Below, piece by piece: positions 38,849 through 58,273 of a stretch of DNA of 64,000 bases. The DNA lies in assembly GCA_963821325.1 (NCBI GenBank), contig CAWGDC010000004.1:15462-79461 (forward strand). The letters run 5' to 3'. Position numbers and translations under genes: made by a program. This stretch comes from an uncultured Actinomycetes bacterium (GTDB lineage Bacteria; Actinomycetota; Acidimicrobiia; IMCC26256; PALSA-555). How positions within the stretch are numbered: position 1 is the stretch's first letter; each line of letters opens with the position of its first letter. Below the pieces are notes generated by a model. That model did not search any database and was not told the DNA's origin. It saw nothing but the letters and a program-made list of their open reading frames with translations.

Positions 38849-39340
38849 TCAGGCGCAGTCCCGGCAGAGCATGCGCTTCTCGTCGGCGAGCTGGTTGCGG
38901 GGCAGCACGAGGAAGCAGGAGGAGCAGAGGAACTCGCCGGGCCGGCGGGGCACGATCTTGGTCGGGACCTCGCCGCGCTCGTCGACCTCGGCTTCTTCTT
39001 CCTCGACCTCCTCTTCCTCGTCCTCGAGCGTGGCGCTGGCCGTGCGCTCCTGCAGGAGGGCGTCGAGGGGGGCCTCGACGTCGTCGGGGTGCAGCTCCTC
39101 GTCCAGGTCGAGGACGTCCTCGTCCTCCTCGTCGGGCTCCCGGACGGCTTTGTCGGCCGGGACAGGGGTCTCGATCGGCGCCGCGGGGGTCTCGAGGTCG
39201 ACGCCGTCCTCGAGGTCGATCTCCACCGCGTCATCGAGCGCGACGTCGTCGTCCAGCGCGTCGTCTTCCTCGAGGACTTCCTCGTCGAGGGCGTCTTCGT
39301 CGAGCTCGACGTCGTCGTCTTCGAACTCGTCGTCGCTCAT
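38849..39340 (-). CDS. DUF4193 family acidic protein
   Basis: Asp/Glu-rich; C-terminal P....EFLCSSCFLV..R.QL......CRDC; SD aggag. Confidence 0.85.
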   Translation of the reverse strand: MSDDEFEDDDVELDEDALDEEVLEEDDALDDDVALDDAVEIDLEDGVDLETPAAPIETPVPADKAVREPDEEDEDVLDLDEELHPDDVEAPLDALLQERTASATLEDEEEEVEEEEAEVDERGEVPTKIVPRRPGEFLCSSCFLVLPRNQLADEKRMLCRDCA

Positions 39341-39752
39341 GATCGCTCCTGCGCCGGCCCGGCGGCCTGGCGCACGCCCGCTGGCCGGCCCATCAGGGGC
39401 CGGAGCATAGGCCTGGCCCCGTTGTCGCTCACGGAACCGGCGGGGCGGCGCGTCCATTCCCACGGACGGCGCGGGAGGTGAGCGGTGGTGGAGGGCCCAG
39501 GAAACCGTTGGGGCCACTGTTTGGCCCAGCCTGCCCAGCAGACGGGTTATTCCAGCGTTCTCTACTGGGTTTCCGGGGCCCCCCGGCCCCCGTGATGTCC
39601 CGTTCGTGGACGTCGACCTCCGGAGGGCCGACCCGCGCCCGGTGACAGGGACGCCTGCTAGTACGCCCGAACCGGGGTGCGCCTGTCAAGGCGAACACGG
39701 GCGCCCTGACCTGGGCACTTGTGCGTCACGGCAGGTCAGCGGCTCGCGGAAT

Positions 39753-41353
39753 TCAGCGGCGGGCGGCGCGGCGCTCCTCGGCGGCCCGTTCGGAGCCGAG
39801 CCGCTCGAGGTCGTAGGTCTCGTGGTCGACGTGGCGCATCGCGGCGGCGATGGCGCGGTGCCCGGCCTGCTCGCCGATGAGGCGGTGCATCTCCTGCGCG
39901 ACGCGCCGGTACGCGGGGTGGCCTTGCGGGGAGGAGCGCAGCTCGAGGACGTGCATCGCCTCCCGCGCGTTCATGTCGAGCACGAAGCGGACCCGGTAGG
40001 CGAGCGCGACCGCGTACGGCGCGTCGTCCGGGAAGCGCGGCGCGAGCGCGGCGGCGAGGTCCGCGGCGCGTCCCATCGCCTCGTCGAAGCGGTCGGTGAG
40101 ACCCGCCTCGGCGATCGCGTCCGGGGTCTCGTAGCCGTGCTGCGCGGTGAGGGGCTGCCAGTCGATGGTGAGGAGCCGGTGACGCTGCAGGTCCCGGAAT
40201 GCGCCGTAGTCGGCGAGGACGTCGAAGCGGTACTGGGTGCGCTCGAACGCCCGGCCCGGCTTGTGGCGTCGGTTGTCCCGGGTCCCCACGTATGCCGCGA
40301 GCAGCTCGTCGCGCTCGTCCGCGCCGAGGCGCCGCACGCGTGAGAGCAGCTGGTCGTCGGGCAGGCTGCTGTGCGGGTAGCAGATCGCGGCGAGGACCTT
40401 GTCCTCGCCGTCGGGGTCGAAGTCGGTGAGCACCACCGACGGGCGCGGCTCGGGGTCCTCGTCGGCGAGGATCCGCTGCACCGCAGCCGCCGTCGCGGTG
40501 CGCGTCTCGGCGAGGTACGCGCTCCACGCGCCCCCGCTCGGGGCGGTCGACGCGGGTGAGGAACGACGGGATGACCTTGCGCAGCTCCTCGAGCATCATC
40601 GCGGCGTACGCGCGCGCCTCGAAGAGCGGGTGGGCGCGCATGCGCAGGAGCAGCGCCTCGAACGACTGCCCGGTGCCGTAGATCCCGACGTTGGAGAGCG
40701 TCGCCGAGGGCAGGATGCCTCGCGCCGCGTCGAACGCCTTCGCCTTCAATGACTGCTGGTAGACGAAGTCGGAATCGCCCGGCTGCTTCGGGTAGCGGCC
40801 CCGTGCCCAGTCGAGCAGGACGGGGAGGCACGTCGCGTAGTCGTCGAACGCGGCGTCGAGGTCGGCGATGTAGCGAAGCCCGAGCGTCGACTCGAGCACC
40901 TCCGGTGGCCGGTAGTAGCGGTACCGGCCGGCGAGACGCGCCGTGTAGGGGATGTAGCGGGTCGACTGCTCGAGGTACGCCATGAGCCGGCCGCGTTCGA
41001 GCACCTTCGTCAGCAGGTTCGAGGCCTGCTCGCAGGCCAGGTGCACGCCGCCGAGCTGCGCGACGGAGTCGTCGCCGTACTCGAGGAACACCCGGTTGTA
41101 GAGCTCCTCGGCGCGGGCGAGCCCGACGCTGGCGTCGACGGTGAGGTCGCCGGTCAGGTCGAGGTCGCCGACGAACTCATCGAGGAAGAGGCGACGCAGG
41201 CTCTTGGAGCTGCGCGAGTAGCGGGCGAACAGCGCGCCCTTCACCACCTCGGGCAGGTTGACGAGCGCGAACACGGGCCGGTCGAGATTCGTGACGTAGG
41301 GCCGCAGCGCCGCTGCTTCCTCGGCCGGTGAACTGCTCCGGCACGTGCTGCAT
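39753..41353 (-). CDS. thyX: Flavin-dependent thymidylate synthase, tandem-domain type (indels)
   Basis: GALFARYSRS, YGDDSVAQL, EQSTRY, RDLQRHR, ELRS..QGH..YR. Confidence 0.88.
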
Positions 41354-41454
41354 CCTGCTCCCGGCCGTCGTCCCGTTGGGGAGGGTGATGGTACCGACGG
41401 CCTCCCGAACCCCCGCGGATGACCCGGTTCGCGGCGTTCGCGCCGATTCGGGGG

Positions 41455-42102: not shown

Positions 42103-44724
42103 GGCGCGGCGCTCGCGGCCGCGACGACGCCGCGGAAGCACGCGTCGGCGGCCGCGCTGGCCGTCGCGCGGGTCGTCGGGTCGGGGGCGACGACCGCCAT
42201 CTGGCGCAGCAGGTCGATGCACTGCTTGACGTGGCGGACGAAGTCGCCGCCGGCGAGCTCGTCGTCCTCGAGGATGTCGGTGAGGGACTCGCCGGCGACC
42301 CACTCGGCGATGTAGGCGGTGAACCCCGGATCCGGGGCGCGGGTTCCGGGGAGACCGGCGTCGTCCTCGGCGGCGGCGAGGGTCCGCCAGCGGGCTTCGA
42401 CGTGACCGGCCCGGTCGGCGACACGGCGGGTCGGCCAGCGCGGCGGCGGCGCGGCGACGTCGTCCCCGCGTCGCTCGTAGGTGAAGCACGACACCATCGC
42501 GGCGATCTCGGCCGCGGTGAGCCCGTCGAGCAGCCCCTCCCGCAGCGACTCGGCGACGAGCAGGTCGGTCTCGGTGTAGAGGCGGGCGAGGATCTCGCCC
42601 GCGTCGGTCAACGCCCAGCCGTCGAGGTAGCCCCACGCGGTGAGGACGTCGAGCACCCGGTCGAAGCGGCGGGCCAGGCTCTCGCTGCGACCGTGCGCTC
42701 GCCGCTCCAGGCGGGCGACCTCGCGGGCGAGCCGCTCGGTGCTCACCGCGGCGCGCACCCGCGCGTCGCGGGCGGGGTCGCGGCTCACCGGGTGCTCGGC
42801 GACCGCCGCCTCGAGCGCCGCCACCTGGTCGGAGGCGGCGCTCCGGTCACCGTCGTCCACGTCGACGCGGCGGAGCCGCAGCGCGGTCTCCCGCCGGAAG
42901 TTCGGGTTGCGCGGGGCGTACGGCTCGGGGAGGTCGACCCGGGCGATGGCGTGCGGCGCGGCACGGAAGTCGTCGGCGTCGAGGCGCACGAGGCCCCGCC
43001 CGACGGTGACGGCGAGCAGCCGGGGCCGTCCGCCGCGTCGCCGCTCGTGGGCCAGCACGGCGACGCGTCCGCCGCGTGCCGGGACGGACAGCACGTCGCC
43101 GGGCCGGAGCCGTTCGAGCGCCGCGGCGACGCGGGTGGTGGCGCCGCGGCCGCGGCGGGCCTCGTCGAGGCGGGCCAGCAGGTCGCGGTACTCGTCGATG
43201 TCGCCGTGCTCGCTGCGGGCCCGGTCGCGTTGGCGGTCGAGCTGCTCTCGGGCGCGCTCGAGCTGGCGCTCGAGGACGACGACGTCGCGGTCGGCTCGGT
43301 ACTGGGCGAACGACAGGTTCACCAGATGGTGCGCGTCGTCGGGCGAGTAGCGGCGCACCAGGTTGACCGCCATGTTGTAGGTGGGTCGGAACGACGAGCG
43401 GAGCGCGTCGGTGCGCCTCGACGCGAGGCCGGCGACCTGATCGAACGTGACCCACGGGCTCCAGCACACGACGGCGTAGCCGACGGCGTCGATGCCGCGC
43501 CGGCCGGCCCGGCCGGTCAGCTGCGTGTACTCGCCCGGCGTGAGGAACTCGTGGCGCTCGCCGGTGAACTTCGTGAGCCGCTCGATGACCACGGAGCGGG
43601 CCGGCATGTTGATGCCGAGCGCGAGCGTCTCGGTGGCGTACACGACCTTCACCAGCCCGGCGGCGAACGCCTCCTCGACCGCCTCCTTCATCGGCGGGAC
43701 CAGGCCGGCGTGATGGGCGGCGAGCCCGGCGGCGAGCCCCTCGCGCCACGCGGGCACGCCGAGCACCGCGAGGTCGGCGTCGGAGAGGTCCTCGAGGTGG
43801 GCGTCGGCGATGCGGCGGATCTCGGCCTGCTCCTCGCGGGTCGGTGAGCCGCGCGCCGGCCGCGTGCGCCTGCGCGACCGCCTGGTCGCAGCCGGCCCGG
43901 CTGAACACGAACACGATGGCGGGCAGCAGCCGCTCGCTCGGCGAGCAGGTCGACGACCTCGACCCGGTCGGGGGGACGGAGGCGGCGCTGCGCCCGGCCG
44001 GCCCCGCCGCGGGGCCCGCGTCGGCTGCTACGGCGGTCGAGCGCGCTCCGCCTCGGGGTTGGGACGCAGGTCGTCGCCGTCGCCGACGAAGGTCGGGCAG
44101 GAGGTGCAGCGCAGCGGCGCCCCGCTCGCCCGCCAGGTACAGGTGGTGCAGCGCGACCGGGCGGCGCTCCTCGATCACCGCCGTCGTCGCGCCCCGCACC
44201 GTCGCGATCCAGTCAGCGACCTCCTCGGCGTTCGAGACCGTCGCCGAGAGGCACACCAGGTCCACCGTCGGCGCGAGATGGACGATGACCTCCTCCCACA
44301 CCGCACCCCGGTAGCGGTCCTGCAGGTAGTGGACCTCGTCGAGCACGACGTAGCGCAGTCCCGCGAGCGCCGGCGCCGCGCCGTAGATCATGTTGCGCAG
44401 CACCTCGGTGGTCATGACCACCACCGGGGCGTCGCCGTTGACCGCGTTGTCACCCGTGAGCAGCCCGACCTGCTCGGCGCCGTGCAGGCGGCGCAGGTCG
44501 GCGAACTTCTGGTTCGACAGCGCCTTCAGCGGCGTCGTGTAGAAGACCTTCGCGCCCGCCGCCAGGGCACGGGCGACGGCGTACTCGGCGACGACGGTCT
44601 TGCCGGACCCGGTCGGTGCGGCGACGAGCACCGAGCGGCCCTCGTCGAGGGCGTCGAGGGCTCGGCGCTGGAAGTCGTCGAGAGCGAACCCGAGCGCGTC
44701 CTCGAACCGCGAGCGGGCGCTCAA
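42099..44724 (-). CDS. helY: Ski2-like DEAD/DEAH RNA helicase HelY (indels)
   Basis: APTGSGKT, TTPLKALSNQK, DEVH, LSAT, ATETLALGINMPA, GRAGRRG, GDFVR; TTG start overlaps upstream stop. Confidence 0.9.
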
Positions 44725-44957
44725 CTGCTGGGCGGGCTGCTCGGGGTGCTCGAGGCCGGGGCGGACGCCGACGGCCCGGTCGTCGAGACCGACGGCGGGA
44801 CGGTCCGCGTCGGGGTCGACGGGGCGGCGCTCGGGTGCGGGCCGAGCACCCACACCATCACGACGGTGAACGCCGTGAGCCCGACGGAGGCGGCGACGGC
44901 GATGATCACCTCGCGGCACGGGCGCGGGGGGTGGTACGTGGCGCGGCGGGGGCTCAT
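44721..44957 (-). CDS. Small single-TM hypothetical protein
   Basis: 78 aa, one TM, Pro/Thr/Ser tail; overlaps tatC stop and helY start. Confidence 0.6.
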   Translation of the reverse strand: MSPRRATYHPPRPCREVIIAVAASVGLTAFTVVMVWVLGPHPSAAPSTPTRTVPPSVSTTGPSASAPASSTPSSPPSS

Positions 44958-48156: not shown

Positions 48157-49107
48157 TCAGGCGCGGGGCGCCTCGTAGCGGGCGAGGACGCGGCGGGCGA
48201 CGTCGGCTCGGGTCGCGGCGCCGTCGGGCGGGTCGAGGACCTGGGCGGAGGGTCCGAGCTGGAGGAGCAGCCGCTCGAGGAACGCCGGGCCGCTGACGGC
48301 CAGCACGACGTCCCAGCCACCGTCGTCGCGAGGGTGGGCTTCCTCGGTGGGAACGGTCTCGGCGACCCAGGCGGCGTCAGCGTCGAGACGCAGGCGGACC
48401 CGCGGGTCGCTCGGCGCGGGCCGGAACACGAGGTCGGCGAGGTCGTCGTCGTCCACCGGGCGCGGGTCGGCCCGTTCGCCGGTCGGGCGGGCGTCCTGGA
48501 TGCGGTCGACGCGGAACAGCCGGTCGGCACCCGCGCGGTGGCAGTACGCCGCGAGATACCAGGCGCCGACGGCGTGGAACGCCCGGATCGGGTCGACGAC
48601 CCGCGTCGTGAGCTCGTCGCGGGCGGCGGAGTAGTAGTCGAGCTCCAGCTGCTCGCCGTCGCGGGCCGCCGCGGTGAGCCGCTCGAGACGGTCGGTGCCG
48701 CCCACGTCGACGGTGAGGGCGCCGTGGGCGCCGAGCGCCTGCTCGAGCTTGGTGAGGGCGGTGGCGAGCGGGCCGGCGTCGTCGGAGCCGGGGACGGCGA
48801 GCAGCGTCCGTCCCGCGGCGAGGAGCGCGACCGCCTCCGACGAGGTCAGGCGCAGCGGACGCTCGAAGTACTCGGCGAGGCGGATGTCGACGGCGCCGTC
48901 GTCGCCGACGATGACGTCGATGAGCCGGTCGGCGCTGTACGGCGGGAGGCCGCACATCGGGAGCAGCTCGAGGTCGGCTTCGAGCTCCGTCTCGGGAACC
49001 TGGAAGCGCTGCGCGAGCTCGCCGATGGTCGTGCCGGGGTGGGCGAGGATCCACGGCACCAGGGCGAGCATGCGCCGCAGCCGCGACGCGGCGACGGGCG
49101 GGCTCAC
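48157..49107 (-). CDS. pafC: WYL-domain transcriptional activator PafC
   Basis: RL.RMLALVPWI, MCGLPPY, R.VDP, WYL, FRVDRI; downstream of pafA/pafB. Confidence 0.88.
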   Translation of the reverse strand: MSPPVAASRLRRMLALVPWILAHPGTTIGELAQRFQVPETELEADLELLPMCGLPPYSADRLIDVIVGDDGAVDIRLAEYFERPLRLTSSEAVALLAAGRTLLAVPGSDDAGPLATALTKLEQALGAHGALTVDVGGTDRLERLTAAARDGEQLELDYYSAARDELTTRVVDPIRAFHAVGAWYLAAYCHRAGADRLFRVDRIQDARPTGERADPRPVDDDDLADLVFRPAPSDPRVRLRLDADAAWVAETVPTEEAHPRDDGGWDVVLAVSGPAFLERLLLQLGPSAQVLDPPDGAATRADVARRVLARYEAPRA

Positions 49108-50033
49108 GGTGCGGCGACGATGGCGTGCAGCCAGTCGACGATGTCGTCGCGCAACGCCGGCGGGCCGACGACCTCGGCGTGGTCGAGCAGCCCGAGCACA
49201 AAGGAGCGGAACGCGGGCCGGTTCACGACGGCCAGCTCGACGACGACGCTGCCGTCGTCGTGACGCTCGGCCACCGCGGTCTCGCCGAGCTCGTCGACGA
49301 CGACCGCGGCGTGCGACGCCGTCGATCCAGCACCCGAGCGGTGACCGGCTCGTCGTCGCCGTAGGTGAGCGGGTCGGAGCGCAGCGCGCCCGCGGCGTCG
49401 AACCCGGCGGGCGGCTCGAACCCGTCCGGTGCCTCGAGGTGGGGTGGGCCGTCGAGGCGGTCCACGCGGAACGAGCGGACGGCGTCCTTGTCGCGGTCGC
49501 GGCCGACGACGTACCAGTGGCCGAGGCGGTGCAGCACCCCGTACGGGTCGAGGGCGCGTCGCTCGCCGCGGTAGTCGAAGGTCGATGGGGCGTCGTCGGG
49601 CGACGGCGTCGAAGAGCTCGGCGACGCCCTGCGTGGTCCCCAGCGCGGCGAGCGCGGTGGTCGGCGCGCCGTCGAAGCCGCCGAGCTTGCGCAGGCCCTC
49701 GCGGGCGTCGCCGCCCTCGAAGCGCACCGCGGTGACCGCCACCTGGAGCGCGGCGCGCTCCTCGGCGGTGAGCCCGGGGTCGGGCAGGTAGTAGTCCTCG
49801 GGGCGGATCCGGTAGCCGAGCTCGTTCGTCAGGGCGTCGACGGGCAGGGTGAGGACGGGCACGCCGAGGTTCAGCAGCGTCTCCTTGTCGCGCTGGAACG
49901 CGCGGCGGCGGGCCACCTTGTCGTCCGGGTAGGACGGCTCGAGCCGCTCGGCGAGCGCCTCGAGGGTCAACGGGCGTCGGGTGTCGAGCAGCGTCGCGGT
50001 GAGGTTCACGAGCCGCTCGAGCCGGTCGCTCAC
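49104..50033 (-). CDS. pafB: WYL-domain transcriptional activator PafB (indels)
   Basis: RLERLVNL..LL, RRAFQRDK, WYVVG.DRD, RSFRVDR. Confidence 0.88.
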   Translation of the reverse strand: MSDRLERLVNLTATLLDTRRPLTLEALAERLEPSYPDDKVARRRAFQRDKETLLNLGVPVLTLPVDALTNELGYRIRPEDYYLPDPGLTAEERAALQVAVTAVRFEGGDAREGLRKLGGFDGAPTTALAALGTTQGVAELFDAVARRRPIDLRLPRRATRPRPVRGAAPPRPLVRRRPRPRQGRRPLVPRGPPRRPTPPRGTGRVRAARRVRRRGRAALRPAHLRRRRAGHRSGAGSTASHAAVVVDELGETAVAERHDDGSVVVELAVVNRPAFRSFVLGLLDHAEVVGPPALRDDIVDWLHAIVAAP

Positions 50034-50069
50034 CGCCCCGCCCCGAGATCGCGCGTCGGCGGGGCGCCA

Positions 50070-51430
50070 CTACAGGGAGGCGATGAGACGCTCGACGCGC
50101 TCGTCGCGCGCCTTGAACGGGTCCTTGCACAGCACGGTGCGCTGCGCCTGGTCGTTCAGCTTCAGGTGGACCCAGTCGACGGTGTAGTCGCGCTTGCGTT
50201 CCTTCGCCCGCTTGATGAACGAGCCGCGCAGCCGGGCCCGCGTGGTCTGGGGTGGGGTCGACACCGCGGTGTCGATCGCCTCGTCGGTCGCGGTGCGGTC
50301 GACCTGCCCGCGCCGCTCGAGGAGGTAGTAGAGGGACCGGGAGCGGGTGACGTCGTGGTACGCGAGGTCGACGAGCGCGACGGTGGGGTGGGTGAGCGGC
50401 ACCTCGTGGCGCTCCCGGTACGCCTCGATGAGGTGGTACTTCACCACCCAGTCGATCTCGCTGGCGCAGCTTCAGCGGGTCGCTCTCGAGGTGGGTCATG
50501 ACGTGCTCCCACATCTCGAGGGCCTGCGCCTCGAGCGGGCTGAGCCCGCGCTTCTTCGCGAAGCGTTGCGCCCGGTTCAGGTACTCGGCCTGCACCTCGA
50601 CGGCGGACAGCTCCCGGCCGTTCGCGAGTCGGACCCGGCGGCGACACGTCATGTCGTGGCTGATCTCGCGGATGGCCCGGATCGGGTTCTCGAGGGTGAG
50701 GTCACGCCAGGGGCTCGGGTCTTCCTCGAGCATGCGCAGCAGGATCGAGCGTGGTGCCGACCTTCAGGAAGGTCGTGTACTCGCTCATGTTCGAGTCGCC
50801 GACGATGACGTGGAGGCGCCGGAAGCGCTCGGCGTCGGCGTGGGGCTCGTCGCGGGTGTTGATGATCGGCCGGGAGCGGGTGGTGGCGCTCGAGACGCCC
50901 TCCCAGATGTGCTCGGCCCGCTGGCTGATGCAGTACATCGCGCCCCGGGCGGTCTGGAGGACCTTCCCGGCCCCGGCGTAGACCTGGCGGGTCACGAGGA
51001 ACGGGATGAGCACGTCGGTGAACTTCGTGAAGTCGCCGTCACGCTCGACGAGGTAGTTCTCGTGGCAGCCGTACGAGTTGCCCGCCGAGTCGGTGTTGTT
51101 CTTGAAGAGGAAGACCTCGCCGCGGATGCCCTCCTCCCGGAGGCGCTGCTCGGCGCTGCGCACCAGCCCTTCGAGGATGCGCTCCCCCGCCTTGTCGTGC
51201 ACGACGAGGTCGGCGATCGAATCGCACTCAGGGGTGGCGTACTCGGGGTGGCTGCCGACGTCGAGGTAGAGGCGGGCGCCGTTCTCGAGGAACACGTTGC
51301 TGGAGCGGCCCCACGACACGACCCGGCGAAAGAGGTAGCGGGCGACCTCGTCGGGGCTCAGGCGCCGCTGGCCTCGCAGGGTGCAGGTGACGCCGTACTC
51401 GTTCTCCAGGCCGAAGATGCGGCGCTCCAC
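50070..51430 (-). CDS. pafA: Pup--protein ligase (indels)
   Basis: [45 protein letters not shown]. Confidence 0.96.
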
Positions 51431-51478
51431 CCGGCGAGCGTACCGGCCCCGGCCGGGCGGCTGGTCCCCTTGAACGGC

Positions 51479-52505: not shown

Positions 52506-53192
52506 TCAGGTCGCGGCGAGTAGCCCGCTCAGCTCGTCGCTCTTGATCCGGCGGAACGCGCGGCGGGGGCGATGTCGGTCCAGGATCGCGACCTCGAGCT
52601 GCTCCGCGGGGAGGGACGCGCCGTCGGCGCCGGCGAGCACCGACGCGCCGAGGCGCAGCGCGGCGCCGAGGTCCAGGCCGGGCTGGTAGCGCTCCTCGAG
52701 CACGGTGGCGACCGCGTCGGCCTGGCCGCCGAGGACGGTAAATCCCGCCTTGTCCATCACGACGCCGTCGTAGAGGATGACGAACATCTCGTCGTCGTCG
52801 GCGTCGGCGCCGACCTGCGCGACGAGGATCTCCACCTCGTAGGGCTTCAGCTCGTGGGTGAACACCTGCCCGAGGGTCTGCGCGTACGCGTTGGCGAGGG
52901 ATCGGGCGTTCACGTCCTCGCGGGCGAACGAGTAGCCCTTCACGTCGGCCTGGCGGACCCCGGCGATGCGCAGCATCTCGAACTCGTTGTACTTCCCGAC
53001 GCCCGCGAACGCGATGCGGTCGTAGATCTCGCTGATCTTGTACAGGGTGCGGGACTGGTTCTCGGCGACCATCACGATCCCGTCGGCGGCGCTCATCGCG
53101 ACGAGGCTGCGACCCCGGGCGATGCCCTTGCGGGCGTAGTCCGCCCGGTCCTTCATCACCTGCTCGGGCGGGACGTAGAACGGCATCGTCAT
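52506..53192 (-). CDS. prcA: 20S proteasome alpha subunit
   Basis: MPFYV.PEQ.MKDRADYARKGIARG, KISEIYDRI, KPYEVE. Confidence 0.96.
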   Translation of the reverse strand: MTMPFYVPPEQVMKDRADYARKGIARGRSLVAMSAADGIVMVAENQSRTLYKISEIYDRIAFAGVGKYNEFEMLRIAGVRQADVKGYSFAREDVNARSLANAYAQTLGQVFTHELKPYEVEILVAQVGADADDDEMFVILYDGVVMDKAGFTVLGGQADAVATVLEERYQPGLDLGAALRLGASVLAGADGASLPAEQLEVAILDRHRPRRAFRRIKSDELSGLLAAT

Positions 53193-54001
53193 CAGTCGCC
53201 GCCCTCCTCGCGTCCCCCGATCAGCGCGTCGGCGCGGCGGGCGATCTCGTCGTCGTCGACGGGGGTGAAGCCGTCCGCGTCGATGACCGCGATCGTGGGG
53301 AAGATGCGCCGCACCAGGTCGGGGCCGCCGGTCGCCGCGTCCTCGTCGGCGGCGGCGAACAGGGCCCGCAGCGCGAGGTCGAGGGTGTCGGCCTGGCTGA
53401 GGTCCTCCCGCCACTGCGCCTTGATCCAGTTGCGGGCGTGGACCCCGCCGGAGCCGTTGGCCTGGAAGTCGAGCTCCTCGTACTTGCCGCCCGTCACGTC
53501 GAAGCTGAACACCCGGCCGCGGCGGCGACGCTCGTCGAAGCCGGCGAAGAGCGGCACGACCACGAAGCCCTGCATCGCCGCCGGCAGGTTGGCGCGCACC
53601 AGCTGGCCAAGCTGGTTCGCCTTCCCTTCGAGGGACAGCATCTCGCCTTCGATCTTCTCGTAGTGCTCGAGCTGGGTCTGGAAGAGCCGCACCAGCTCGA
53701 CGGCCGGGCCGGCGGTGCCGGCGATCGCCACGCCGGAGGTGTCGTCGGCGGGGAACACCTTCTCGATGCGGCGGCTCGCGATCGTGTACCCGGAGGTGGC
53801 GCGCCGGTCCCCGGCCATCACGACGCCGTCGGCGTGGCGGATCGCGAGGACGGTCGTGGCGGTCGGCGCGTCGAGCGTCCTCGCGTCACCGACGGGGGTC
53901 GTGTGGTCCGCGGGGGTGCCAACGCGTCGGAGCAGATCGGCGAACGACGGGCCCGGGTCGCGGCCGGCGGGGAACGTCGGTAACGGCGACTCACCGAGCA
54001 C
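53192..54001 (-). CDS. prcB: 20S proteasome beta subunit
   Basis: Propeptide then TTVLA (Thr1), AGDRRAT, LEHYEK.EG, GSG, ATGGPD; own -10 TAGGCT 6 nt before GTG. Confidence 0.96.
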   Translation of the reverse strand: MLGESPLPTFPAGRDPGPSFADLLRRVGTPADHTTPVGDARTLDAPTATTVLAIRHADGVVMAGDRRATSGYTIASRRIEKVFPADDTSGVAIAGTAGPAVELVRLFQTQLEHYEKIEGEMLSLEGKANQLGQLVRANLPAAMQGFVVVPLFAGFDERRRRGRVFSFDVTGGKYEELDFQANGSGGVHARNWIKAQWREDLSQADTLDLALRALFAAADEDAATGGPDLVRRIFPTIAVIDADGFTPVDDDEIARRADALIGGREEGGD

Positions 54002-54027
54002 CGAGCGAGCCTACACGGCACCCCTCA

Positions 54028-54050
54028 GCCGGCCACTGGCGGTGGCCGGC
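54028..54050 (-). terminator. GC-rich hairpin after the relic pup stop codon
   Basis: gccggccac-tggcg-gtggccggc perfect 9-bp stem; no U-tract. Confidence 0.4.
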
Positions 54051-54059
54051 GCGTGCCGC

Positions 54060-54092
54060 CTACCCGCCGCCCTTGTGTAGATACGACTTCAC
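54060..54092 (-). repeat. Decayed duplicate of the pup 3' end
   Basis: gtg aag tcg tat cta cac aag ggc ggc ggg tag = VKSYLHKGGG* versus pup VKSYVQKGGE*. Confidence 0.8.
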
Positions 54093-54147
54093 GAGAATGA
54101 CTCGCCGAGCACCACGCGCCGACACAAGCGGTTCTCTCCAAACCCGG

Positions 54148-54694
54148 TCAGCGAGGTTCAGACTCCTGCGTCTGCTCGCGTTCCCGGCGGACGATGTCCA
54201 GCCGGGCGAAGCCGCCAAGCGTGACATACTCCGCGGCTCGCAGCATGAGCTCCGGGTCGTCCTTCAGCTGCCCGATGGCGTTGTTGCACCGGACACAGAG
54301 AACTCCACGGACGGACTCCGCGACGTGGTCGACATGCATCGACCGGCCGTCTGCTGGCTGCTCGCCACAGATCGCGCAACCACCGTCCTGGGCGGCGAGG
54401 ATGTCGTTGTAGTCCTCAAACGTCATCCCGAACGTGCGGCGCAGGTGGAGGCGACGCATCTGGAGAGCGCGGCCCTCTCGGTTCTTGAGCCGGTACTGGC
54501 GCAAGCGGTCTGGATTATCTCTGTTCCAACGCTTGATATACGCCAGGCGCGCCTCACGGTTTCGGGCGTACCAGCCCTTCGCCGCGGGCTTTGAAGCAGC
54601 TCTTGCAATCGCCACGCAGACCGTCTTTGCAGCCCGCCGCCGCGTAGAACCCGCTCTCAGGCTTCAGCTCACCGCACTTCGTGCATCGCTTCAT
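54148..54694 (-). CDS. Endonuclease VII domain protein (putative homing endonuclease; 1-nt indel near 54590)
   Basis: N-terminal MKRCTKC...CKSC zinc finger; C-terminal Y..IL..Q.G.CAIC...HVDH..VRGVLC..CN.AIG...DD; less GC-rich than flanks. Confidence 0.88.
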
Positions 54695-54701
54695 GCGTGC
54701 A

Positions 54702-54723
54702 CATATACCGGTGGTGTGTGACA
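54702..54723 (-). promoter_or_regulatory. PafBC/RecA-NDp-like promoter (near match), leaderless
   Basis: TGTCAC-N10-TATATG-N7-ATG. Confidence 0.45.
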
Positions 54724-54755
54724 TTGACCGTCGCCACCGCGATGGTCAATGCACA
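54717..54755. terminator. Long hairpin immediately after pup stop
   Basis: tgtg-a-cattgacc-g-tcgc-cacc-gcga-t-ggtcaatg-caca. Confidence 0.5.
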
Positions 54756-54760
54756 AAATC

Positions 54761-54955
54761 CTATTCTCCGCCCTTCTGGACGTAGCTTTTTACAAAGTCC
54801 TCGGCGTTCACCTCGAGCACCTCGTCGATCTCGTCGAGGAGGTCGTCGAGCTCACCCTTGAGCTTCTCGCCGCGCTCGGATGGCGCTGGGAGCTCTTCGG
54901 TCTCCTCGACTCGCTCGGGGGGTGCGGGCCGCTGACGGCGCTGCTGTTCAGGCAT
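54761..54955 (-). CDS. pup: Prokaryotic ubiquitin-like protein Pup (GGE type, 64 aa)
   Basis: DDLLDEIDEVLEVNAEDFVKSYVQKGGE*; SD ggagg; follows dop. Confidence 0.97.
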   Translation of the reverse strand: MPEQQRRQRPAPPERVEETEELPAPSERGEKLKGELDDLLDEIDEVLEVNAEDFVKSYVQKGGE

Positions 54956-54975: not shown

Positions 54976-56481
54976 TTAGGACGAGAGCCGGGCGACGAGC
55001 GCCGCGGGCGTGTCGACGCTGGCGAACAGGGGCTCGACGTGGGCGCGGGTGCCGCGGAGCGGCTCCATCATGGGGATCCGCTTCAACGGGTCGCCGCCGA
55101 CGTCGAGGATGAGGCTGTCCCAGTTGGCGGCGACGACCGCCTCGGGCCAGCGGGCCAGGCACGTGCCGCGGAAGTAGGCGCGGGTCGACCCGGGCGGTTC
55201 GGTGATCGCGGCGAGCACGTCCGCCTCGTCGACGAGCCGCTCGACCGTGCCGGCGCGCACGAGCCGCTCGTAGAGCGAACGGTCGGGGCGCACGTCGTGG
55301 TACTGGAGGTCCAAGAGGGCGAGCTTCGGGTCGTTCCATTCGAGGCCGTCCCGGTCGACGTAGGCCTGGAGGAGGGTGCGCTTCGTCACCCAGTCGAGCT
55401 GGCCATCGAGGGCCTGCGGGTCGTGCTCGAGCGCGCCGAGGACGGCCTCCCAGCGGTCGAGCACCTGCGGGCCAACGGTCTCGCCGCCGCACGCGTCGAG
55501 GCCGGTCTCGTCGGCGTACTTGCGGGCCAGGCGCAGGAACTCCCACTGCAGCTCGACGGCGGTGACCCGGCTGCCGTCGGCGAGCTCGACGGTGGCGCGG
55601 CAGGTCGGGTCGTGCGAGACGATCCGCATCGCCGGGACGGGCCCGGCGAGGGACCACTCGCGGCGTGACCCGGCGCCCCCGTCGAGGAAGTCGTCCTCGA
55701 TCATGGCGAGCACGATCGCCGTCGTCCCGATCTTGAGGAACGTGGCGACCTCGCACAGGTTGGCGTCGCCGGCGATGACGTGGAGCCGCCGGTAGAGCTG
55801 CGGGTCGGCGTGCGGCTCGTCGCGGGTGTTCACGATCGGGCGCTTCAGTGTCGTCTCGAGGCCGACCTCCTCCTCGAAGAAGTCGGCGCGCGAGCTCAGC
55901 TGGTAGTCGACCGGCGCGGCGCCGTTCTCGGAGCCGACCTTCCCTGCGCCGGTGAACACCTGGCGGGTGGCGAACCAGGGCAGGAGGTAGCGGACCAGGC
56001 TCGAGAAGGGCACGGCGCGGTCCACGAGGTAGTTCTCGTGGCAGCCGTACGAGTTGCCTTTCCCATCGGAGTTGTTCTTGTAGACGACGATCGACTGGCC
56101 GGCGTCGAGGAGCCGGCCGGCGGCCTGCATGGACCGGGCCAGGACCCGCTCGCCGGCCTTGTCGGCGAGGACGAGCTCGAGCGCGTCGGCGCACTCGGGG
56201 GTCGAGTACTCGGGGTGGGCGTGGTCGACGTAGTAGCGGGCCCCGTTGGTGAGCACGGTGTTGACCAGGTGGGTCTCGATCTCGGAGGCCTGGCCGCCGT
56301 CCCGGCCCGACCCGCGGGCGTCGCGTCCGGGGCTCTCGTCCTCGAAGTCCCAGCCGACCTTGCGCTGCTCGACGTAGCTGTTGATGAGCACCGACGACGC
56401 GAGGACCGGGTTGGGGTCGGGGGTGCCGCGCAGCACGACGCCGTACTCGGTCTCGGTGCCGCACACCTTGGGGACTGCCAC
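54976..56481 (-). CDS. dop: Depupylase/deamidase Dop
   Basis: [58 protein letters not shown]. Confidence 0.96.
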   Translation of the reverse strand: MAVPKVCGTETEYGVVLRGTPDPNPVLASSVLINSYVEQRKVGWDFEDESPGRDARGSGRDGGQASEIETHLVNTVLTNGARYYVDHAHPEYSTPECADALELVLADKAGERVLARSMQAAGRLLDAGQSIVVYKNNSDGKGNSYGCHENYLVDRAVPFSSLVRYLLPWFATRQVFTGAGKVGSENGAAPVDYQLSSRADFFEEEVGLETTLKRPIVNTRDEPHADPQLYRRLHVIAGDANLCEVATFLKIGTTAIVLAMIEDDFLDGGAGSRREWSLAGPVPAMRIVSHDPTCRATVELADGSRVTAVELQWEFLRLARKYADETGLDACGGETVGPQVLDRWEAVLGALEHDPQALDGQLDWVTKRTLLQAYVDRDGLEWNDPKLALLDLQYHDVRPDRSLYERLVRAGTVERLVDEADVLAAITEPPGSTRAYFRGTCLARWPEAVVAANWDSLILDVGGDPLKRIPMMEPLRGTRAHVEPLFASVDTPAALVARLSS

Positions 56482-56518: not shown

Positions 56519-58273
56519 CTACAGGTACTGGCCGGTGGTGACCCGCTCGATCTGGCGGCCGCCGGTGGACTCGTCACCTTCGGCGAGGAGGGTGCGGACG
56601 AACACGATGCGCTCACCCTTCTTGCCGGAGATCTTCGCCCAGTCGTCGGGGTTCGTGGTGTTCGGCAAGTCCTCGTGCTCCCGGAACTCCTGGCGGATCG
56701 AGGCGAGGAGGTCGTCGGTGCAGATGCCGCGCGCGCCGCCTTCGATCTGGCGTTTGATCGACAGCTTCTTGGCCCGCCGCACGATGTTCTCGATCATGGC
56801 GCCCGACGCGAAGTCCTTGAAGTAGAGGATCTCCTTGTCGCCGTTCTGGTAGGTGACCTCAAGGAACTGGTTGTCGTCGTCCTCGCTGTACATCTGCTCG
56901 ACGGACGCGCCGATCATGGCGCTGACCGCCTCGGCGGCGGTCCCGTGCCCGGCGGTCTCGGCCTCGGCGATCGGGAGGCTGGCCGTGAGGTACTGGGAGA
57001 AGATCTGGCGGGCGCTGGCCTCGTCGGGCCGCTCGATCTTGATCTTCACGTCGAGGCGGCCCGGGCGCAGGATCGCCGGGTCGATGAGGTCCTCGCGGTT
57101 CGACGCGCCGATGACGATCACGTTCTTCAGGCTCTCCACGCCGTCGATCTCGGCGAGGAGCTGCGGCACGATCGTGCTCTCAATGTCGGACGAGATGCCG
57201 GTCCCGCGGGTGCGGAACAGCGAGTCCATCTCGTCGAAGAACACGATGACCGGGACACCCTCCTCGGACTTCTCGCGGGCGCGTTGGAAGATGAGACGGA
57301 TCTGGCGCTCGGTCTCCCCGACGTACTTGTTCAACAGCTCGGGGCCCTTGATGTTCAAGAAGTAGGAGCGCGACGACGCGTCGCCGGTCTTCTCGGCGAC
57401 CCGCTTCGCGAGCGAGTTCGCGACGGCCTTGGCGATGAGGGTCTTGCCGCAGCCGGGTGGCCCGTAGAGCAGGATGCCCTTCGGGGGCTGGAGCTGGTGC
57501 TCGTGGAACAGCTCGGCGTGCAGGTACGGCAACTCGACCGCGTCGCGGATCTGCTCGATCTGGTCGTCGAGACCACCGACGTCGGCGTAGGAGACGTCGG
57601 GGACCTCTTCGAGGACGAGCTCCTCGACCTCGGGGCGGGGCAGCCGCTCAACGACGAGGCCAGAGCGGAGGTCATAGAGCAGGTGGTCGCCGGCTCGCAG
57701 CTTCTGGCCCACCATCGCGCCGGCGAGCTCGCAGACGCGCTCCTCGTCGGCGCGGCCGACGACGAGGACCCGCTGCGGGTCGGCGAGCATCTCCTTGAGG
57801 ACCACGACCTCGCCGGCCACCTCGAGGCCCCGGGCGAGGACCACGTTCAGCGACTCGTTGAGCGCGACCTCCTGGCCCCGCTCGAGGGACTCGACGTCGA
57901 CCTCGGGGTGCACCGAGACGCGCATCTTGCGCCCGGCGGTGAAGATGTCGACGGTGCCGTCGTCGTTGGCGCCGAGGAACGCCCCGTACGCCGAGGGCGG
58001 CATCGTGAGCTTCTCGACCTCCTCGCGCAGCGCCGCGATGTGCTCGCGGGCCTCGCGGAGGGTGGCGGAGAGCCGCTCGTTCTGGGAGACGGCCTGGGCG
58101 AGCTGGCCCTTCGTCTCGAGGAGCCGCTCCTCGAGGGTCCGCACCCGCTTCGGGGCGTCCTGGAGGCGCCGGCGGAGGATGACGATCTCCTCCTCGAGGG
58201 CCTTGAGCTGGGATTGCAGCTCGCCCACCTGCCGCTCATACTCGGCGAGGCGTCGCTCGTGCTCTGGGGCCAC
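56519..58273 (-). CDS. arc: Proteasome AAA ATPase ARC/Mpa
   Basis: Coiled coil, [24 protein letters not shown]-terminal GQYL HbYX motif. Confidence 0.97.

Follow-up and report, generated by a model that had tools for sequence, protein, structure and literature searches.

Why does the high-GC genome of an uncultured soil Actinomycetes bacterium spell the end of its pup gene with A/T-ending codons, keep a second, degenerate pup end further downstream and carry an endonuclease gene between the two? The locus lies in a 64,000-nucleotide stretch of contig CAWGDC010000004.1 (positions 15,462 to 79,461 of assembly GCA_963821325.1), which is referred to here as the window. We suggest, with a probability of about 0.6, that the product of the gene separating pup from prcB is a site-specific, free-standing nuclease with an endonuclease VII (EndoVII) motif of the His-Me ('DHHRN') type, and that this gene behaves as an intron-less homing element at the pup–prcB junction, the pup tail being its putative target. 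Alleles with the nuclease gene are called occupied below, and those without it empty.

Structure of the pup–prcB junction

The junction comprises the following features, given in the direction of reading:

54761..54955, minus strand: pup, 64 codons and TAG, product ending in FVKSYVQKGGE, with a Pfam Pup match (E 2.2e-21) and a C-terminal GGE
54761..54796, minus strand: re-spelled pup tail and putative left end of an imported segment, TTT GTA AAA AGC TAC GTC CAG AAG GGC GGA GAA TAG
54717..54755, minus strand: RNA hairpin just 3' of the pup stop (-24.1 kcal/mol, z -4.8, equalled by 0 of 200 shuffles)
54702..54723, minus strand: promoter-like motif TGTCACAC-N8-TATATG, 7 nt before the nuclease ATG
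54148..54694, minus strand: nuclease gene (ATG at 54694, TGA at 54148-54150) coding for a Zn-ribbon, a helical middle part and a C-terminal EndoVII (His-Me) motif
54099..54128, minus strand: degenerate duplicate of prcB codons 1-5 and of the promoter before them (with the -10 TAGGCT region), of the occupied-allele type
54093..54098, minus strand: ATTCTC, the putative junction at which the imported segment meets the old allele
54060..54092, minus strand: relic of the original pup tail, VKSYLHKGGG and stop, gtg aag tcg tat cta cac aag ggc ggc ggg tag
54012..54059, minus strand: original pup–prcB spacer with a hairpin (-35.5 kcal/mol, z -3.6)
54008-54013, minus strand: -10-like TAGGCT of the real prcB
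53192..54001, minus strand: prcB, proteasome beta subunit (Pfam Proteasome, E 4.2e-38)

The working tail, the hairpin, the nuclease gene and the relic had been pointed out in an initial annotation of this DNA, and all four are present on the minus strand where it placed them. Its counts are also correct: the relic and the working tail agree in 7 of 10 residues, five of these through different codons. The G+C content at third codon positions (GC3) of the working tail is 0.58, compared with 0.97 for dop and 0.96 for prcB.

The relic was examined at the level of the whole genome. When both strands of the 3.69 Mb were searched with up to 8 mismatches to the 33-nt tail of the empty relative L022, two sites only were found, namely the working tail and the relic, with 6 mismatches each. 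The relic differs from the empty tails of the same genus at 6–7 of 33 nt. A scan for second tails, requiring at least 8 of 10 template positions, covered 201 pup loci from relatives and from a phylum sample; the window's locus was the only one to have such a tail, and the same relic was thus found in no relative without the nuclease. Judged from these comparisons, the relic is not a chance resemblance.

The 55 nt separating the nuclease stop from the relic hold a feature that the initial annotation did not include, a decayed prcB promoter followed by a copy of prcB codons 1–5 (GTGTCGGCGCGTGGTGCTCGGCGAGTC vs. GTGTAGGCTCGCTCGGTGCTCGGTGAGTC). Of 29 aligned columns, 24 are identical between this pseudo start and the real copy, a score reached by 2 of 2000 shuffles. 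It has CTTGTGT and T-GGTG in common with the nuclease-bearing alleles L004, L005 and L012, in which the real prcB promoter lies ~20–35 nt past the nuclease stop. The spacer upstream of the real prcB, in turn, matches that of the empty allele L025 (CCGTGTAGGCTCGCTCGGTG). The resulting order is the 5' part of pup, then a block of new tail, nuclease and occupied-type prcB start, then a block of old tail, old spacer with hairpin and real prcB. Because the pseudo prcB start is of the occupied type and the relic tail follows it, a segment of an occupied allele, extending from within pup to prcB codon 5, is to all appearances joined imprecisely and without homology onto an empty allele at TTC(TC)/GTG AAG; the structure itself can be read off the DNA, and the repair route is what we infer from it. 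The TTC in the junction may be the old Phe codon followed by two filler bases. Such a structure would be the expected product of one-sided repair after a break at the Phe/Val codons.

A discrete element of about 700 bp, as first proposed, does not agree with these data. The segment has no fixed ends, since the insert in the window also carries the prcB promoter and five codons, and the scan revealed no second tail in the other occupied loci that it covered, the gene being simply located in the pup–prcB spacer.

As a separate observation, occupied as well as empty loci share a conserved GTAGGCTCG with a TAGGCT located 6 nt ahead of the start codon of prcB. This suggests that the prcB transcript has its own promoter and is leaderless or nearly so.

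The quality of the assembly has to be considered here. The genome (3.69 Mb, 71.9% G+C, 6 contigs, 82.5% completeness) shows at least 7 frameshifts in conserved window genes within ~25 kb in comparison with the sister genome G002, where these genes are intact: pafA and a pafB-like gene are affected twice each, and three others are affected as well. Genes split across frames were found at 50070-51454 (pafA), 49107-50042, 39792-41397, 42129-44880 and 38852-39546, and the pieces flanking the two pafA frameshifts are 96–100% identical to G002. Assembly indel errors thus appear to occur about once per 3–4 kb, and frameshifts in the window need independent reads. With such an error-prone assembly, the relic and the pseudo copy could be assembly artefacts or chance resemblances; this is very improbable, because indel errors cannot make diverged duplicates, the relic is the sole second tail site in the genome, and the pseudo copy outscores 1998 of 2000 shuffles. 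A contig from a public sequencing run (X1) is also identical to the window across 54079-54268, though it includes just 14 nt of the relic tail. The run has zero cover of 53950-54051 and possibly derives from the very sample behind the window assembly.

The nuclease

The nuclease has ~181 codons once an extra base at 54582/54583 is discounted; the window reads the gene in two frames. An N-terminal CxxC...CxxC ribbon is followed by a region matching Pfam Endonuclease_7 (PF02945, E 1.4e-18, 67 bits vs. a cut-off of 23.6). The homologue at L003 matches phrog_2633 ('endonuclease VII') over its whole length (E 4.8e-32). The zinc site CX2-4C/CX2C around the catalytic loop is present, its CAIC and CVRC being invariant in our alignment (A1) of the family. 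Equivalents of D40/H41, R54 and N62 were found in the window as HVDH...VRG...CNN; H, R and N are invariant in the alignment, and the D column is at least 90% conserved, differing in L018 and L021 as aligned.

The second His (H43 of T4 EndoVII) is absent from the window sequence (HVDHVAES) and likewise from the whole short-loop clade (L003–L011). It is kept elsewhere, as D/N-H-x-H in L013, L018 and L021 and as H-x-D-H-D/N-H in L015–L017. HVDH without the second His is therefore, as far as the alignment can tell, a clade-wide variant under selection and not a sign of decay, the catalytic activity of the clade being putative.

Among solved structures, the best matches to the profile of the nuclease were Hpy99I (1e-8) and T4 EndoVII (1.3e-8), the alignment to the latter being limited to 66 profile positions (T4 residues 10–86). 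The AlphaFold 2 model, inspected for a beta-beta-alpha-metal fold, has a confidence (pLDDT) of 90.6, with two strands (120–132) and a helix (134–139) at the motif, and the top Foldseek rows were again T4 EndoVII and Hpy99I, as weak matches (E 0.06–0.08). The architecture of a T4-type resolvase was not found: the motif is located at residues ~100–150 of 180 and is not N-terminal. NCBIfam has no family for this nuclease. There is one Endonuclease_7 gene in the genome, this copy. Full-length homologues with 35–38% identity occur in 807 phage records, and all 11 listed rows having annotation are labelled 'endonuclease VII'.

The initial annotation had regarded the gene as possibly decaying, based on the 1-nt indel and on HVDHV lacking the second His. 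Both are there in the window, and neither holds as a sign of decay. The frame is shifted by a surplus G (CGC G[G]C GAA), and the X1 contig covering 54467-54960, nearly identical to the window, is without exactly one base at 54582; the conserved genes nearby have their own frameshifts; the read-through aligns full-length to intact homologues; and the HVDH clade has a ratio of nonsynonymous to synonymous divergence (omega) of ~0.2–0.3. We therefore rejected a decaying pseudogene, and the indel is best read, from the contigs at hand, as an assembly error or a polymorphism.

Distribution and site of the gene

Of 61 related genomes, 29 yielded a homologue, among them 6 of the 11 in the same genus. 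All 20 loci returned adjoin pup or prcB; 19 of them have pup directly upstream, and 17 have prcB downstream. The exceptions are contig ends or cases with prcB beyond the fetched locus. When one genome per species was scanned (513 relatives) and the context was read for the best 80 loci, pup or prcB was the neighbour in 77 of these. The 77 belong to Acidimicrobiia metagenome-assembled genomes, Streptomyces, Micromonospora, Nonomuraea, Catellatospora, Winogradskya and Actinomadura. In the Streptomyces loci among them the nuclease lies between pup and prcB, as the initial annotation had stated for some Streptomyces. The phylum sample comprised 401 genomes, 189 of which yielded a Pup, and 100 pup loci were fetched; a nuclease match downstream of pup was present in 10 of the 97 with readable tails, two of them being remnants only.

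Presence is patchy. Same-genus genomes without the nuclease have pup and then prcB 40–150 nt further on with no remnant at all, and empty sites were verified in G004, G007, G008 and G009. On the host tree built from Dop and PrcB (29 rows), at least 5 gains or losses are required, three of them forced by well-supported branches, and the empty L025 is the sister of the occupied L004. Signs of a life cycle were seen as stops, frameshifts or remnants-only copies in L016, L017, L019, L020, L030, L113 and L139; L030 retains just part of the Zn-ribbon. The gene thus has two properties of homing genes: a single conserved site adjoining a conserved gene, and a presence/absence polymorphism with intact empty sites.

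At L038, L047, L052, L055, L082, L100 and L104, extra DNA of 1–1.8 kb with long open reading frames (ORFs) lies between the nuclease and prcB. One of these ORFs is PLD-like (L038), and 9 of 10 have no Pfam family. To judge by these ORFs, the pup–prcB site may collect further cargo.

Codons of the pup tail

The last 11 codons of pup were compared at loci with a pup GC3 of at least 0.8. Tails next to a nuclease have a mean of 4.58 A/T-ending codons (median 4, n = 73) and tails without it 1.24 (median 1, n = 74), with a Mann–Whitney p of 2e-20 that ignores the relatedness of loci. The GC-rich tails of relatives without the nuclease agree with the earlier idea of a recoded 3' end and a displaced old one. 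Empty tails read TTC GTG/GTC AAG TCS TAC GTC CAG AAG GGC GGC GAG/CAG, the form in the same genus being TTC GTG AAG TCS TAC GTC CAG AAG GGC GGC GAG TAG, and those of occupied family members are mostly TTT GTA AAA AGY TAY GTN CAR AAR; at the F-V-K codons the occupied alleles of the genus share T..A..A, whereas the empty ones have TTC GTG AAG. The share of A/T at third positions increases toward the nuclease, being at background up to codon -27, 0.2–0.3 at codons -26 to -14 and 0.4–0.58 in the last 12. As an association uncorrected for phylogeny, this is the pattern of co-converted flanks or protective polymorphisms seen with homing genes. At L113 and L030, which have only a remnant of the nuclease, the tails are GC-rich again.

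In most occupied loci the GC3 of the tail is 0.33–0.67, and that of the nuclease gene is 0.72–0.84. Because the tail exceeds the nuclease gene in A/T content, donor composition alone fails to account for it. This result bears on the possibility that the gene is a passive cassette, spread by recombination or phage-mediated exchange, directed at some other target (for example, phage or branched DNA) and flanked by a tail left over from a lower-GC donor. Close full-length homologues are indeed common in phages (807 records), and the nuclease has a GC3 below that of its host. With a tail more AT-rich than the nuclease gene and a gradient directed toward it, with the same site used in two classes, which is not expected of passive cargo, and with one copy per genome where checked, we consider this explanation improbable.

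The initial annotation had also raised the possibility that GGE and GGQ types of Pup are swapped between lineages. The last Pup residue is E or Q in 46:46 loci with the nuclease and in 36:57 without it, and no clear signal of swapping is seen in these overall counts. As a side observation, the last residue differs (Q vs. E) in 3 of 6 occupied host sister pairs (L006/L008, L007/L010 and L019/L020).

Two further elements were observed just past the pup stop. The word ATGTCCGWTT is found 3–12 nt past it in many occupied loci (e.g., L008, L009, L011, L015, L060, L087 and L154), has the reverse orientation in Micromonospora (L061–L093) and is represented by TTNYGTACAAG in other lineages. It resembles the TAY GTC CAG part of the pup tail and is a candidate for a binding site of the nuclease or of a regulator, or for an older tail remnant. 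Streptomyces loci (e.g., L063, L072, L079, L094 and L115) have a conserved hairpin, CCTTCGAATCGAAGG, right past the pup stop, with compensatory variants (CCTTCAAGATGAAGG in L116) and a loop change in L086. We regard this hairpin as a probable structured RNA in the interval from pup to the nuclease gene.

History of the nuclease and selection

The five nucleases nearest to that of the window form one clade (support 99/99), and L015 and L017 of the same genus carry a different subtype with HVDHNH. L011 and L014 are sisters in the host tree and are not sisters in the nuclease tree. Approximately unbiased (AU) tests, made on groups picked once the tree was seen, reject host-congruent nuclease clades with p of 0.009, 0.016 and 0.042. 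The host of L021 belongs to Acidimicrobiia, its Dop being 90–92% identical to those of L007, L035 and L036, and its nuclease shares 42–43% identity with the nucleases of these kin and 55–62% with those of Micromonosporaceae. The L021 nuclease is placed with the latter in a supported clade (97/93) and is thus a cross-class case. The Streptomyces nucleases fall on the Acidimicrobiia side of the nuclease tree. Synonymous divergence (dS) between L003 and L005 is 0.88 for the nuclease, 0.22 for dop and 0.25 for prcB; between L007 and L010 it is 1.19 vs. 0.37–0.50 for the flanks. Strict vertical inheritance, named in the initial annotation as an outcome that would contradict homing, is itself contradicted by the patchy presence, the AU tests and L021; the trees indicate that the nuclease is not strictly vertically inherited, and a horizontal history unlike that of the host is a further property shared with homing genes.

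Omega is 0.16–0.31 in all tested pairs, with a median of 0.21 in Streptomyces and Micromonospora, and the nuclease protein is therefore kept by selection.

Promoters and DNA damage

The promoter-like motif reported earlier is supported in one respect: a conserved TGTCACAC-N8-TAnnnT stands about 7 nt ahead of the start in nucleases of the window's family. A generic sigma-70 scan of the window found no promoter there, and a terminator scan gave one match, inside the nuclease gene and likely due to chance. A strict genome search with TGTCACAC-N7-9-TAnnnT returned 0 sites, as the window's own -10 is TATATG, and the relaxed TGTCACAC pattern was uninformative (10 sites in the genome vs. 17 in the control). 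GTCACAC-N8-TAnnnn occurs at 8 sites in the genome vs. 2 in the control, and these include recA, a PD-(D/E)XK nuclease gene and the pup-locus nuclease. The PD-(D/E)XK gene (PF12705, E 8.5e-36; G000:C1:608648, L218) has CGTCACAC-N8-TACCCT 9 nt before its start, a motif that it shares with the second recA promoter (P2) and the pup-locus nuclease.

The recA gene of the window's genome also has the promoter TTGAAA-CGAACgcctGTTCG-TACGCT (P1, the first recA promoter), and lexA has two such boxes. The LexA box CGAAC-N4-GTTCG is present before both recA and lexA, and none of the 16 genome sites listed lies upstream of the window's nuclease. In another lineage of Acidimicrobiales, an SOS-box promoter, TTGAMA-(A)CGAAC-N4-GTTCG-TAnAAT, was observed 30–70 nt before the nuclease start at L047, L049, L052, L055 and L100 (also at L042 and L048). 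The layout in these L047-type nucleases is almost identical to that of the recA promoter in the window's genome. GTCACAC-N8-TAnnnn is a candidate for a damage promoter of the PafBC/RecA-NDp type, for which a non-palindromic upstream motif common to recA and spaced regularly from the -10 would be expected; the mycobacterial RecA-NDp consensus did not appear in the texts consulted. Taken as motifs, these promoters indicate that expression of the nuclease is probably tied to DNA damage. According to passages of a review, mycobacterial recA is regulated via both LexA and PafBC, and PafBC is a damage regulator encoded in the Pup-proteasome locus.

Promoters of this kind lead to the main rival of the homing reading, a resident host gene: a damage-induced, structure- or sequence-specific nuclease acting in repair or in the Pup-proteasome system, mostly inherited vertically, repeatedly lost and occasionally replaced by ordinary homologous recombination, with the AT-rich tail meeting a regulatory or RNA-structural need. 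A role in the Pup-proteasome system was proposed from the same neighbourhood by Jablonska et al. 2017 (PMC5714182), whose His-Me group 13 comprises actinobacterial Endonuclease_7 proteins encoded downstream of pup or upstream of prcB; the passage concerned does not mention mobility, re-spelled tails or relics. A resident gene would be in line with purifying selection everywhere tested, with the near-universal presence of the gene among the sampled Streptomyces loci, with nuclease identity following host identity at large scale, with promoters that match those of recA (the SOS-box type at L047, L049, L052, L055 and L100 and the TGTCACAC type in the window's family) and with the presence of PafBC in the same locus. 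It leaves unexplained the relic tail with its occupied-type pseudo prcB start, the clean empty sites with GC-rich tails within a nuclease-bearing genus, and the cross-class nuclease, which occupies the same site and has flanks of local type. In addition, ~70–210 nt separate the AT shift from the -10-like hexamer of the window further downstream, a distance that an UP element would not span, and no Pfam or NCBIfam family ties the nuclease protein to pupylation. A resident gene alone therefore seems rather unlikely to us. Nonetheless, homing and residence as a host-useful damage nuclease are not mutually exclusive.

Proposed homing model

Based on the above results, which support the main inference of the initial annotation, we suggest the following course of homing at the pup locus. 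The likely target is the DNA encoding the Pup C-terminus F-V-K/R-x-Y-V-Q-K-G-G-Q/E, which is near-invariant in high-GC Actinomycetota. When an occupied and an empty allele meet in one cell, the nuclease would cut or nick the empty allele in the tail, and the occupied allele would then serve as the template of repair, with the nuclease gene being copied together with adjacent flanking DNA. The synonymous, mostly A/T-ending codons of the tail would protect occupied alleles. In the window, repair was presumably imprecise: copying may have proceeded from pup through the new tail and the nuclease to the donor prcB promoter and five prcB codons, after which the copied end would have been end-joined to the broken end at the Phe/Val codons. 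Expression would be linked to damage, through the motif shared with the second recA promoter in the window's family and through a LexA SOS box like that of the first recA promoter in the sister lineage.

A wider version of this model is tentative, and we hold it as somewhat less probable than its alternatives taken together. According to it, a homing lineage with the EndoVII motif colonised chromosomes of Actinomycetota via the DNA for the Pup C-terminus, became wired to damage (by a LexA box or a motif of the second recA promoter type) so that it would act in the presence of RecA and of single-stranded DNA entering the cell, and made pup tails throughout the phylum change to synonymous codons; it would be a selfish parasite and not a component of the locus.

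Several points weigh against homing. Cleavage, nicking and over-transmission are what we infer from sequence. The clade of the window is without the second His of DHDH, and the H43T change at this position inactivates T4 EndoVII (Fang et al. 2018, PMC6083498, in the part consulted). The relic, being unique among the 201 loci, is the record of a single event, and run X1 may be the window's own source sample. The link between tail and nuclease is uncorrected for phylogeny, and the independent pairs on well-supported branches number two, which is too few; moreover, the occupied L011 and L013 have GC-rich tails (2 A/T-ending codons each), and the empty L025 has 4 such codons. The AU groups were chosen after inspection of the tree. 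In Streptomyces and Micromonospora, nuclease dS is only ~1.9 times that of the flanks (median), and raised nuclease dS may be due in part to weaker codon bias (GC3 of 0.72–0.84 vs. >0.9). Nuclease identity follows Dop identity at large scale, and therefore transfers occur mostly between relatives, or the gene has resided for long in some genera. It looks resident and selected in Streptomyces and Micromonospora, and in one genus of the phylum sample (g76) 4 of 5 loci have a strong nuclease match and one has a remnant only. A fixed, purely selfish gene should decay. Finally, damage-type promoters suit a role in host repair equally well.

The homing reading matters for several reasons. In Streptomyces, Micromonospora and many uncultured Acidimicrobiia, few neighbours of pup and the proteasome genes are as conserved as the nuclease; if it homes, the inference of function from gene neighbourhood at the Pup locus needs revision. 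The odd rare-codon tail of pup in high-GC organisms would be explained, and intron-less homing would have a clear example in cellular chromosomes, as opposed to phages and organelles. The footprint of one imprecise event in the window points to a break at the Phe/Val codons. The nucleases would be compact enzymes of ~180 residues with a long, GC-rich and conserved recognition site and natural resistant variants. A selfish nuclease coupled to SOS- or PafBC-type promoters would also offer a testable idea of homing between bacterial cells.

Genomic setting

The Pup-proteasome locus of the window is completed by the following features:

56519-58273, minus strand: mpa/arc, first in the order mpa/arc, dop, pup, nuclease gene, prcB, prcA, pafA
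54976..56481, minus strand: dop (depupylase), an ORF directly upstream of pup, named via homology to the Dop/PafA family

The dop product has 95% identity to Dop of the sister genome G002. Among the public runs, the RNA runs X3 and X5, considered for expression, cover the conserved part of pup only and come from other organisms, and runs X2–X12, with small shares, were uninformative on habitat.

The RecA family match in the window's own genome (G000:C1:479348-481222; L214, L215) is split into profile positions 1–198 and 194–262 by an insert of ~1.07 kb inside a single open frame of 1037 codons. Judging from this arrangement, the insert is probably an intein, i.e., a second homing-type element of the genome.

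Comparison with known systems

The gene neighbourhood has already been published, and the homing reading was not found in print. Our literature search yielded no paper treating the pup-locus nuclease as mobile; Supplementary Figure S4 of Jablonska et al. and the tables of Fang et al. may list its genes. The word 'endonuclease' is absent from the main text of Iyer et al. 2008.

T4 EndoVII, a Holliday-junction resolvase, has an N-terminal motif and a dimerisation domain, unlike the pup-locus nuclease. The restriction enzyme Hpy99I has a partner methylase, and proteins with a C-terminal motif group with homing and restriction enzymes (the 'endonuclease clade') and not with resolvases, as stated in the part of Fang et al. 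2018 (PMC6083498) consulted; no methylase gene was seen in the pup–prcB spacer. The same part describes F-CphI of cyanophage S-PM2 as a free-standing homing endonuclease using the EndoVII motif. The pup-locus nuclease resembles F-CphI, as presented there, and the 'DHHRN' family in being free-standing, in adjoining its (putative) target gene and in having ~180 residues with CxxC/DH/R/CxxC-N in the C-terminal half. Unlike F-CphI, it is chromosomal in cellular Actinomycetota, is associated with no intron, belongs to a clade without the second His and has a target deduced from comparison.

SegF and SegG of phage T4 are said to be further free-standing, intron-less homing endonucleases. For T4 MobE, the part of Wilson and Edgell 2009 (PMC2790892) consulted gives donor immunity via target polymorphisms and co-conversion that declines with distance. 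The likeness to MobE, as described there, includes the location of the nuclease gene between two conserved genes and a cut, presumed in our case, in the neighbour gene of genomes lacking the nuclease gene. In contrast to T4 homing, which takes place during phage co-infection, the present system involves bacterial chromosomes and a damage-type promoter, and the alleles would meet by conjugation, transformation or transduction.

As for the imprecise event in the window, illegitimate double-strand-break repair during homing with one-sided homology was reportedly described by Parker, Belisle and Belfort in 1999. Insertions of homing endonuclease genes (HEGs) in fungal mitochondria are likewise said to duplicate or replace the 3' end of a gene, as in Allomyces atp6 and Ophiostoma rps3. 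The window is similar to these fungal cases in that the reading frame is re-established by the 3' end that the imported piece brings along, the displaced 3' end staying downstream. It differs from them in the bacterial chromosome, in the EndoVII-type enzyme and in that the piece imported here contains, in addition, a duplicate of the start of the downstream gene.

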